Of a stretch of DNA of 64,000 nt, positions 50,176-53,100 are shown piece after piece. The number at the start of each line of letters is the position of its first letter. The first letter of the stretch is position 1. The position numbers were made by a program. Source of the stretch: Escherichia coli O157:H7. Its GTDB lineage: Bacteria > Pseudomonadota > Gammaproteobacteria > Enterobacterales > Enterobacteriaceae. The stretch lies in the NCBI RefSeq assembly GCF_013167455.1, contig NZ_CP038328.1; one strand, 5' to 3'.

Positions 50176-53100
50176 TAATTGGCTTCTGCTCCGGCAGAAA
50201 ACAATTTGCGAAAAAACCCGCTTCGGCGGGTTTTTTTATGGTTAAATTCTGAATCAGCGTAAAAAATGGAAAGTTGCTTTTTGCTGCCGTCTGACAGACA
50301 GGCAAAACAAAAACCACATCGCCAATAAGGGACTAAGTCAACTATTTCAGACTAAAGCGCATCTTTTTTTCCCCATTTCCGGCATCGACTCACCACAAAG
50401 GTCGCAAAATCTGGTAAACTATCATCCAATTTTCTGCCCAAATGTCGGGTATTGCTCATTTTTTGTTTGATTTTCGAACAAAGAGAGTCGTTCCTTACTG
50501 GGTAACACAACTTCTGACTGGCCACCTGGTGGCTGGTAGCAGTAAAAATTCTGACTATACCTGGAGGTTTTCATGGCTGTCGCTGCCAACAAACGTTCGG
50601 TAATGACGCTGTTTTCCGGTCCTACTGACATCTATAGCCATCAGGTCCGCATTGTGCTGGCTGAGAAAGGTGTAAGTTTCGAGATCGAACACGTGGAAAA
50701 GGACAATCCGCCTCAGGATCTGATTGACCTCAACCCGAATCAGAGCGTTCCGACCCTGGTGGATCGTGAGCTGACCCTGTGGGAATCTCGCATCATTATG
50801 GAATATCTGGATGAGCGTTTCCCGCATCCGCCACTGATGCCTGTTTACCCGGTAGCTCGCGGTGAAAGCCGTTTGTACATGCATCGCATCGAAAAAGACT
50901 GGTACACGCTGATGAACACCATCATCAACGGTTCAGCTTCTGAAGCAGATGCCGCACGTAAGCAACTGCGCGAAGAACTGCTGGCGATTGCGCCGGTCTT
51001 CGGTCAGAAGCCGTACTTCCTGAGCGATGAGTTCAGCCTGGTCGATTGCTACCTTGCTCCGCTGCTGTGGCGTCTGCCGCAACTGGGTATCGAGTTCAGC
51101 GGCCCGGGTGCGAAAGAGCTGAAAGGCTATATGACCCGCGTCTTTGAGCGTGACTCTTTCCTTGCTTCTTTAACTGAAGCAGAACGTGAAATGCGTCTGG
51201 GCCGGAGTTAATCTGTATGGATTTGTCACAGCTAACACCACGTCGTCCCTATCTGCTGCGTGCATTCTATGAGTGGTTGCTGGATAACCAGCTCACGCCG
51301 CACCTGGTGGTGGATGTGACGCTCCCTGGCGTGCAGGTTCCTATGGAATATGCGCGTGACGGGCAAATCGTACTCAACATTGCGCCGCGTGCTGTCGGCA
51401 ATCTGGAACTGGCGAATGATGAGGTGCGCTTTAACGCGCGCTTTGGTGGCATTCCGCGTCAGGTTTCTGTGCCGCTGGCTGCCGTGCTGGCTATCTACGC
51501 CCGTGAAAATGGCGCAGGCACGATGTTTGAGCCTGAAGCTGCCTACGATGAAGATACCAGCATCATGAATGATGAAGAGGCATCGGCAGACAACGAAACC
51601 GTTATGTCGGTTATTGATGGCGACAAGCCAGATCACGATGATGACACTCATCCTGACGATGAACCACCGCAGCCACCACGCGGTGGTCGACCGGCATTAC
51701 GCGTTGTGAAGTAATACAAAAACAGGCCCTGGCGGCCTGTTTTGTCTTTTAATGACTTAATAAAATAGCGTGATTGTGGCAATCATATTCACCACGAAAC
51801 CGACTGCCATGGGGATCGCTGTCCGCTTCACCACCGCAAAAGGCGAAACGCCTGCAATTCCTGACGTAACGACCACCACCGCAGTAATCGGCGAAACCGC
51901 GCGCTAGCGTCGTGGCAAAATGCATCGGCATAATCATTACAACCGCTGGTACATGTAGTCCGGCTGCGATATTCGGAATAAGACTGGCAAATGACATAAA
52001 CGGCGCATTGCCAGAGCCCATCACAATGGCACAAATGGCAATGACCAGCGCCATAATAATCATCACGCCAATACCGCCCAGACCAGAATGCTCCGCACCC
52101 CTGATAACCGCATCGACAGTGCCAATCGTCGTTAAGCCTTTCGCAAATATTTCACCCGCGACCACCAGCGTTACCACGTTGGCAAACTGCGTACCCATGC
52201 CGTCAAAAAACGCCTGCACATCGTCCATTGTTTCGCGCAAGTTATGCTTGCGGAAGAACTCAACAAACATCGTCAAACTCAGTAACATCACCACCACCAG
52301 ATGCAGTTCTGACTGCATCAGCCCGATGTGGGCAAGGAATAGCGAGCCGAGCATCAGGATTAACGGCATCACAGGTAAAATGGCGTAATAGAGCGGCGGG
52401 ACATTATCGAGAGCTTTTTGCTCTGCCTGTTCGTGATTGATATTTTTATCTTTTTTGTCAAAAGCGCGTTGCACGAAAAAGTGGGAGATCGCCACCGAGA
52501 TAATGACGCAAGAGGCGACCGGAAGCTGGTAGTGGAAGAAGTAAGTGGCAATTTTCATTCCCGCTACCTGGGCTGCAAAAATGGAGTTCGTTTCCAGAAT
52601 CCCCCACTCAATGGACATTGTGGTTGCGATAACCGCCACCGCAGAGAGACGGCTTACTCCCAGACTCACCAGTGTCGGAAATAAGGTGACCATCAGCAAC
52701 ATACCCAGGCCGGAGGCGCTGGTAATAAACTGCGCCATGATTTGGCCGATGACGTAAGTTGCCGACAGAATAATATACGGCGAGCGAATGAGTTTTAACG
52801 GGCGGCTTAACAAGCTCACCATCGCGCGACTGGCTCCTGTGCGCTCCATGTAGCGGGCATAACCGCCCACCGCCATAATCGACAGCCCCAATCCGGCAAT
52901 GCGGTTGGACAGCATGCGCAGGATTTCATTATAAATATCGACGATCAAGTAGCCGCTGCTTTTGGCGGGATCGAGTACACCACCTAACCCTAACCAGACA
53001 CCGCACATCATCAGGAAGATACCTGCAGCCAGCACCACCTGAGGTTTGTAGTTTTTCAGGATCAAATAGCCCATCGTAATTAATACGATGACAGATATAA

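Follow-up and report, generated by a model that had tools for sequence, protein, structure and literature searches.

The IEE protein promotes the transposase-dependent excision of insertion sequences (IS) of the IS3, IS1 and IS30 families and possesses a microhomology-mediated end-joining activity (PMC9943667). A related process is the loss of ISApl1, an element of the IS30 family, from Tn6330/mcr-1 (Snesrud et al. 2018); according to a bioRxiv review, ISApl1 is lost between microhomologies of 2-4 bp, with deletions that differ from the IS in length by no more than a few bp, and IS30 itself gave similar products (bioRxiv 10.1101/2023.06.07.543989). Here we analyze a 64-kb stretch of DNA (hereafter, the window) from an Escherichia coli O157:H7 genome of the typical, non-sorbitol-fermenting (NSF) type. 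In this window, dcuD, a gene of the DcuC family of anaerobic C4-dicarboxylate carriers, is broken by a frameshift and additionally contains two in-frame deletions which, judging from the comparison with close relatives, are most likely scars of the excision of IS30 and IS629.

The joints in dcuD resemble the products of IEE-promoted excision in enterohemorrhagic E. coli (EHEC) O157 (Kusumoto et al. 2011, as presented in PMC9943667 and bioRxiv 10.1101/2023.06.07.543989) both in the elements involved, namely IS629 and IS30, and in their location at microhomologies of 1-5 bp, with the IS lost together with, or short of, a few flanking bases. Unlike the excision described in the laboratory, the process at dcuD is reconstructed from natural, lineage-fixed alleles rather than observed. 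Similarly to the loss of ISApl1, the dcuD case would involve removal of an IS30-family element at a short microhomology (1222 or 1229 bp removed, compared to the 1221 bp of IS30); unlike ISApl1 in the plasmid transposon Tn6330/mcr-1, the affected locus is a chromosomal gene and the element is IS30 itself.

The dcuD locus

The closest described gene is that for DcuD (YhcL) of E. coli K-12, a protein that matches PF03606 and NF007317. The K-12 and window genes share the nanR-dcuD-sspB arrangement and are ~98% identical at the nucleotide level. K-12 dcuD has been reported to lack expression in the majority of the conditions examined (PMC6414658, citing Janausch and Unden 1999), and a K-12 dcuD mutant has been reported to grow faster in glycerol fermentation at pH 7.5 (PMC6414658).

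In the window, nanR and sspB flank dcuD on either side, that is, the gene occupies the conserved position of DcuD orthologs. With 953.6 bits, the match to NF007317 clears the cut-off of 623, and it is through this model that the Prokaryotic Genome Annotation Pipeline (PGAP) names the gene dcuC. Both family hidden Markov models (NF007317 and PF03606) identify a DcuC-family carrier, the domain of which is not contained as a whole in a single reading frame. Dozens of O157:H7 chromosomes share the 1.5-kb dcuD region of the window with 100% identity. In contrast to this allele, the coding sequence is intact, at 1368 nt, in O55:H7 DEC5A, K-12 MG1655 and two other E. coli. Most of the codon differences among intact alleles are synonymous (ratios of synonymous to other codon differences of 12:3, 19:3 and 17:2), which indicates that, by this measure, dcuD is under purifying selection where it is intact. 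Nevertheless, dcuD is missing from ~1040 of the 5426 complete E. coli genomes (~19%) and therefore appears to be dispensable in the species. In one of the strains without the gene, Z1323CEC0015, the gap between nanR and sspB is only ~107 bp.

The GC-tract frameshift

The minus-strand sequence at 51908-51897 is GCTAGCGCGCGG, i.e., GCTA(GC)3GG, which is read around the tract as ACG CTA GCG CGC GGT TTC GCC (the features of the locus are collected in Table 1). A first-pass annotation of the window, made from the sequence alone, had placed a frame shift of dcuD in this short GC repeat and pointed out the NheI and BssHII sites that overlap it, and every element of that description is borne out by the sequence and its frames. 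The frame that starts at the ATG runs to a TAA at 51751-51749; in the +1 frame, a TAG lies directly upstream of the tract and the ancestral TAA is found at 51759-51757. The shift was accordingly expected to fall within GCTAGCGCGCGG, and the alignments place it there: the CTA(GC)3GG of the window corresponds to CTA(GC)4GG in O55:H7 DEC5A, K-12 MG1655 and the two other E. coli. The first-pass annotation had allowed for either the loss of a GC unit or the gain of one base; given that the difference is exactly 2 bp in the alignments with O55:H7 and K-12, the frameshift is a real loss of one GC unit, from (GC)4 to (GC)3. The restriction sites themselves (GCTAGC starting at 51903 and GCGCGC starting at 51899 on the plus strand) occur in the intact ancestral allele as well, and we do not consider them meaningful.

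Table 1. Features of the dcuD locus and of the IS30 remnant in acrF, with positions in the 64-kb window
Feature	Position	Strand	Description	Basis or reading
dcuD pseudogene, DcuC-family anaerobic C4-dicarboxylate carrier	51757..53113	minus	ATG at 53113, ancestral TAA at 51759-51757	
CTGCAG joint	53023..53028	minus	in-frame 3-bp deletion, one of Ala29-31 lost; ancestral GGCT-GCC-GCAGG	putative IS629-excision scar
Missense single-nucleotide polymorphism	52985	minus	TTC to TTA, Phe44Leu	NSF O157:H7 stem
Single TGACG left	52271..52275	minus	in-frame 6-bp deletion (Val283-Thr284); ancestral TGACG-G-TGACG	putative IS30-excision scar
GCGCGCG tract, (GC)3 then G	51898..51904	minus	2-bp loss from ancestral (GC)4; frame shifts after Arg408	
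Displaced ancestral C-terminal segment	51757..51903	minus	+1 frame, ending TLFY and stop	translation, Pfam DcuC match
Out-of-frame tail	51749..51897	minus	49 hydrophilic codons (ending ILLSH) and TAA	translation, hydropathy
54-bp terminal IS30 remnant inside acrF	11324..11377		replaces 9 bp, GGCGTTTTG	joint at GT..GT microhomology

The 2-bp loss replaces residues 409-455, a hydrophobic segment of 47 residues, with 49 unrelated hydrophilic ones. The shifted tail has a mean Kyte-Doolittle hydropathy of -0.70 compared to +1.54 for the ancestral tail, in agreement with the earlier description of a tail unlike a membrane protein in the annotated frame and of a hydrophobic C-terminus, ending at the stop at 51757-51759, in the +1 frame. 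The same partition is seen in searches with the Pfam DcuC profile (461 positions): the O55:H7 protein matches positions 1-460 (472.4 bits), whereas the in-frame window product matches positions 1-414, with 400.8 bits and the match ending at residue 405, and the +1-frame segment alone matches positions 414-460 (47.9 bits, E = 9e-13). This +1-frame segment is identical to the C-terminus of the O55:H7 and K-12 proteins. A comparison of DcuD C-termini, which the first-pass annotation had proposed as a check, shows that intact proteins end in TLFY and not in the GFADYCGGG tail of the window product. Compared to K-12 DcuD, the first 408 residues encoded in the window are the same except for the loss of one alanine, F44L, the loss of Val283-Thr284 and a few substitutions that distinguish the O55:H7 and K-12 alleles; unlike the K-12 gene, the window allele is frameshifted after Arg408, has domain positions 414-460 out of frame and is annotated by PGAP as a pseudogene. 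The last 47 hydrophobic residues (DcuC positions 414-460) being lost, it is very unlikely, as far as can be predicted from the sequence, that a functional carrier is produced from this gene.

The (GC)3 allele, queried as an exact 80-nt sequence, is present in 296 complete genomes, and every sampled carrier is O157:H7; the corresponding segment spans 82 nt, i.e., (GC)4, in all 56 sampled genomes other than these. Synthetic exact-match queries for (GC)5 and (GC)2 alleles retrieved none among the 4385 dcuD-bearing genomes. The frame is broken in comparison to intact close relatives, and a single lesion, mapping to the stem of the NSF lineage, is common to the entire clade; on the evidence of these alignments, dcuD is a lineage-fixed pseudogene in NSF O157:H7. 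Taken alone, this frameshift is routine and is already flagged in the RefSeq annotation, for instance in O157:H7 PA20, where PGAP labels dcuD as a 'frameshifted' pseudogene. Our search of the accessible literature turned up no paper dealing with the decay of dcuD in O157, and nothing on the probable IS scars described below.

Further lesions in dcuD

The frameshift is accompanied by lesions that the first-pass annotation, although correct with regard to the frame, did not report, namely two further deletions and a missense change, together with the link to IS elements described below. Exactly four changes separate the window from O55:H7 DEC5A across 2.1 kb: deletions of 3, 6 and 2 bp and one single-nucleotide polymorphism (SNP). 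An aligned block of 48 kb contains 29 SNPs and 5 small indels, and three of these indels fall within dcuD, which at 1.37 kb makes up 2.8% of the block. The SNP, F44L, is common to the window, PV15-279 and F3113, with the ancestral base kept in DEC5A, in the sorbitol-fermenting (SF) O157:NM strain 493/89 and in LSU61. The 6-bp deletion allele is confined to the 296 NSF O157:H7 genomes. For the 3-bp deletion, the count is indirect, given that a band of at least 99% identity is inexact (partial matches enter it): subtraction of PV15-279 and F3113 from the 296 (GC)3 genomes gives 294.

IS30 and IS629 at the sites of the in-frame deletions

Using the O55 dcuD allele as the query and inspecting the junctions in relatives, we found that both in-frame deletions are located at sites that are occupied by an IS in a close relative. 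In SF O157:NM 493/89, an O55-type dcuD is interrupted by IS30 (1221 bp, with a 2-bp target duplication GT) in the arrangement GAGTT-TGACG-GT-[IS30]-GT-GACG-ATG, such that the element lies exactly between two TGACG repeats. At this very site in the window, the repeats are collapsed to GAGTT-TGACG-ATG, with a net loss of 6 bp. LSU61 has a third configuration, GACGGT-T-GACG, with one additional T at the junction (joint GACGGTTGACG), which is the product expected from the removal of 1222 bp, from the initial TG of IS30 to the TG on its far side.

A comparable situation is seen at the 3-bp site in the sister clade. PV15-279 shares the 6-bp and 2-bp deletions and F44L with the window; at the 3-bp site, the ancestral sequence is retained, but it is split by IS629/IS1203 in the arrangement GGCT-[GCC]-IS629(1310 bp)-[GCC]-GCAGG, where GCC is the target duplication. 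The window has GGCT-GCAGG at this position (joint GGCTGCAGG), and the missing triplet is exactly the GCC that is duplicated in PV15-279. F3113 has GGCTGCC-T-GCAGG (joint GGCTGCCTGCAGG), a net gain of 1 bp that corresponds to the left duplication followed by the first base of IS629; this allele is unique to F3113.

In comparison with the occupied alleles, IS30 would have been removed in segments of 1222 and 1229 bp and IS629 in segments of 1312 and 1316 bp, each within 1-8 bp of the length of the respective element. Each of the joints is located at a microhomology: TG (2 bp) for the 1222-bp removal, TGACG (5 bp) for the 1229-bp removal, G (1 bp) for the 1312-bp removal and GC (2 bp) for the 1316-bp removal. 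An occupied allele at the exact site in a close relative, combined with a microhomology joint and removal of approximately the length of the IS, is what would be expected of the scar of an excised IS, and these features are found at both sites. The 6-bp and 3-bp deletions are therefore most likely microhomology-joined IS-excision scars, as judged from the alleles of these relatives. The joints are consistent, by analogy, with transposase-dependent IS excision accompanied by microhomology end joining of the kind that IEE promotes.

Probable order of events

SNPs were scored in the ~43 kb that are common to the window, DEC5A, 493/89, LSU61, PV15-279 and F3113. DEC5A is separated from all O157 genomes by 12 SNPs; the NSF stem is marked by 4 SNPs including F44L, along with the 6-bp and 2-bp deletions; PV15-279 and F3113 form a clade with 6 shared SNPs; and the clade of the window has 11 SNPs and the 3-bp deletion. 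Published trees agree with this topology, placing LSU-61 at the node that joins O55:H7, SF O157 and NSF O157. All three O157 branches are lesioned at the same dinucleotide, and ~10 O55:H7 genomes are intact.

The most economical history that we infer from these distributions is a single insertion of IS30 near the root of O157 followed by separate removals. Under this scenario, IS30 would have inserted once between the TGACG repeats, with the 2-bp duplication GT, in or close to the ancestor shared by all O157, and this insertion probably was the first hit to the gene. The element would have persisted in SF O157:NM 493/89, would have been removed between the two TG dinucleotides in LSU61 (1222 bp lost, with a net gain of one T) and, on the NSF stem, would have been removed between the TGACG repeats (1229 bp lost, with a net in-frame loss of 6 bp). 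On the NSF stem, dcuD, by then broken or dispensable, may have gone on to acquire F44L and the 2-bp loss. The 2-bp loss would have arisen once on this stem, most simply by replication slippage, and would have been tolerated because dcuD had previously become dispensable or dead. Later, IS629 appears to have inserted at GCC; it persists in PV15-279 and is predicted to have been removed twice, with the loss of 1312 bp in F3113 (net +1) and of 1316 bp, at the GC microhomology, in the main O157:H7 clade (net -3). As an overall explanation, a fixed frameshift pseudogene combined with serial insertion and removal of IS30 and IS629 appears to us to be quite probable.

The reported distribution of SpLE1 can be compared with this history. 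The iee gene is located on an SpLE1-like element, and SpLE1 is, we presume, the element that carries it. SpLE1 target sites have been reported in complexes A5 and A6 and reported to be absent from complexes A1, A2 and A4 (PMC3271280). This distribution would fit the retention of IS30 in SF O157:NM and its loss in NSF O157:H7. The resemblance to IEE-promoted excision includes the lineage itself, given that the scarred dcuD alleles belong to the lineage (A5/A6) reported to have SpLE1.

An IS30 remnant in acrF and other IS traces in the lineage

An unambiguous vestige of IS30 is present elsewhere in the window, inside acrF (Table 1). The remnant matches positions 1167-1221 of the IS30 in dcuD of 493/89 with 100% identity, and the site is uninterrupted, with GGCGTTTTG kept, in DEC5A, 493/89 and LSU61. 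It is found in exactly 294 genomes, which corresponds to the 296 genomes minus PV15-279 and F3113, both of which lack the region. Given the presence of the remnant in these 294 genomes, acrF is, on sequence evidence, disrupted in typical O157:H7. As a separate observation, acrF of LSU61 is marked as frameshifted by PGAP; the lesion is located elsewhere than the site of the IS30 remnant, which is intact in LSU61.

The region missing in PV15-279 and F3113 comprises ~5.4 kb (window 10759-16180) and includes part of yhdJ, yhdU, acrS, acrE and part of acrF. An IS629 is located at the deletion junction in PV15-279 and none is present in F3113; the two deletions differ by 3 bp at their right ends and by 18 bp at their left ends. 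These junctions suggest two independent IS629-adjacent deletions that derive from one shared insertion. Descent of the F3113 deletion from the PV15-279 state was considered and rejected on account of the left endpoints (10776 vs 10758). Because of the acrF remnant and the difference between the yhdJ-acrF junctions, it can be concluded from the compared genomes that both IS30 and IS629 have inserted and been imperfectly removed in this lineage.

Alternative histories of the lesions

The tentative possibility that the serial insertion and erasure of IS extends to the frameshift itself, with the 2-bp loss in the GC run as a third scar, of IS30, deserves mention because IS30 duplicates 2 bp, so that the loss of the IS together with both copies of the duplication gives -2. 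An IS30 scar at the GC run is possible but unsupported, and the reading of dcuD as a record of three such scars is, in our estimate, rather doubtful. The default explanation of the 2-bp loss is slippage, because no occupied counterpart is known at that site, and this change probably is plain slippage in (GC)4. If the third scar were real, IS excision, and not polymerase slippage, would be the source of a substantial share of the small indels by which O157:H7 differs from O55:H7. Apart from dcuD, aaeA (position 39058) shows an in-frame loss of 3 bp, ATG, only in the window lineage, with ATG kept in DEC5A, 493/89, LSU61, PV15-279 and F3113; the size of this deletion equals that of the IS629 target duplication, no occupied allele is known, and it might be a further example of a scar.

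Conversely, all three deletions and the insertions in LSU61 (+1) and F3113 (counted as +4 under this reading) could have arisen by independent slippage under relaxed selection, with the IS target sites coinciding by chance or through a shared preference. Several observations favor this alternative over serial IS insertion and removal, and they should be counted against the latter. Each event is located at a short repeat, namely (GC)4 for the 2-bp loss, TGACG-G-TGACG for the 6-bp loss, GC..GC for the 3-bp loss and the CTGC-CTGC tandem for the F3113 insertion. Each occupied allele is represented by one complete genome only (493/89 for IS30 and PV15-279 for IS629), so that ancestral occupancy is deduced rather than observed; the IS629 occupancy, moreover, is confined to one strain of the sister clade. 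The O157 node is a three-way split, with 0 SNPs in ~43 kb that resolve 493/89, LSU61 and the NSF stem. The gene is dispensable, as reflected in its absence from ~19% of E. coli and the reported lack of expression in K-12 in the majority of conditions examined (PMC6414658). Finally, the absence of the 6-bp and 3-bp deletions from ~4,090 other genomes argues only weakly against slippage hotspots, given that such deletions would be purged by purifying selection wherever dcuD is functional.

Independent slippage is opposed by the coincidence of the lesions with the IS sites. Under that alternative, four separate lesions would have to match two IS target duplications base for base within a 1368-bp gene, and the chance of each coincidence is ~10^-2 to 10^-3 under uniform placement. 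Furthermore, three of the five small indels of the 48-kb block are concentrated in 2.8% of the sequence, the removed lengths track the IS lengths, the acrF remnant demonstrates an IS30 microhomology joint in the same window, and F3113 has lost another IS629 that is kept by its sister PV15-279. Taken together, these points make independent slippage at all sites unlikely, and we retain IS excision as the explanation of the 6-bp and 3-bp deletions.

Positive selection for the loss of dcuD in the O157 clade, with the lesions of 493/89, LSU61 and the NSF lineage being convergent pathoadaptive changes, would account for the presence of a disrupting lesion on all three O157 branches and the intact state of the ~10 O55:H7 genomes, and could be linked to the faster growth of the K-12 dcuD mutant in glycerol fermentation at pH 7.5 (PMC6414658). 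Convergence, however, leaves the shared dinucleotide unexplained, and no selection for further hits would operate after the first knockout, yet the 3-bp and 2-bp deletions and F44L have accumulated. A single ancestral hit by IS30 with subsequent neutral decay provides a more economical account, and we consider selected loss to be distinctly improbable.

Among the explanations that concern the frameshift alone, retention of function through programmed ribosomal frameshifting, transcriptional slippage at the GC run or a C-terminally altered carrier might be invoked given that the promoter region, the start codon and 408 codons remain open and that the +1 frame preserves the ancestral C-terminus. 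However, the site at 51897-51908 contains neither a slippery heptamer nor a homopolymer run, and the orthologs each use one reading frame, hence the shift is not a conserved feature. Besides, the last 47 residues are part of the conserved DcuC domain, and the two further deletions in membrane segments together with F44L point to decay, which renders a still functional dcuD very improbable.

The first-pass annotation had offered slipped-strand variation, a pseudogene or a sequencing error as causes, and only the second of these has held up, given 296 identical assemblies with no variation in tract length. The location of the shift inside a dinucleotide repeat, and the different tract lengths in O55:H7 and O157:H7, bring to mind the simple-sequence-repeat contingency loci, in which the same kind of event, gain or loss of a repeat unit in a coding region, shifts the frame and could toggle dcuD by slipped-strand mispairing. 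Unlike such loci, the dcuD tract consists of just 3-4 units, is invariant within the lineage, being (GC)3 in all 296 O157:H7 genomes and (GC)4 in all other sampled genomes, and has changed once, on one branch of the tree, with no exact (GC)2 or (GC)5 allele among the 4385 genomes, so that phase variation is highly implausible. An error of sequencing or assembly in the source genome has a negligible probability, even though some platforms miscall short GC-rich repeats, considering that 296 complete genomes, from many different laboratories and sequencing platforms, share the identical 80-nt allele, that (GC)3 segregates cleanly with the phylogeny and that PGAP reports the frameshift.

Implications for the lineage and for indel interpretation

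The frameshift adds one more decayed, dispensable metabolic gene to O157:H7, and the IS-scar result is of modest specialist interest. The locus would provide natural examples of IS30 and IS629 removal joints that are consistent with the IEE mechanism, which is known mainly from the laboratory. In IS-rich pathogens, indels that are small and in frame may represent scars of transposons, and this matters for mutation spectra and for the inference of selection. In practical terms, the (GC)3, 6-bp and 3-bp deletion alleles together with the acrF IS30 remnant are clean, stable lineage markers, which separate O55:H7, SF O157:NM, LSU61-like strains, the GUD+ strains (PV15-279/F3113) and typical O157:H7.

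Other differences in the window

Several further differences from the relatives were noticed in the window. In yhcG (minus strand, open reading frame 59028-60077), at ~59740, the window lacks 77 bp that are present in O55:H7 DEC5A and that consist of two ~38-bp palindromic units of a short array; PGAP annotates yhcG as frameshifted in F3113 and PV15-279 and as intact in DEC5A, LSU61 and 493/89. The 23S rRNA gene of the rrn operon contains ~10 differences from DEC5A within 13 bp (1981-1993), a pattern that looks like gene conversion between operons. In the yhcN-argR intergenic region, at 42642, the run of T is one T longer in DEC5A than in all five O157 genomes compared.

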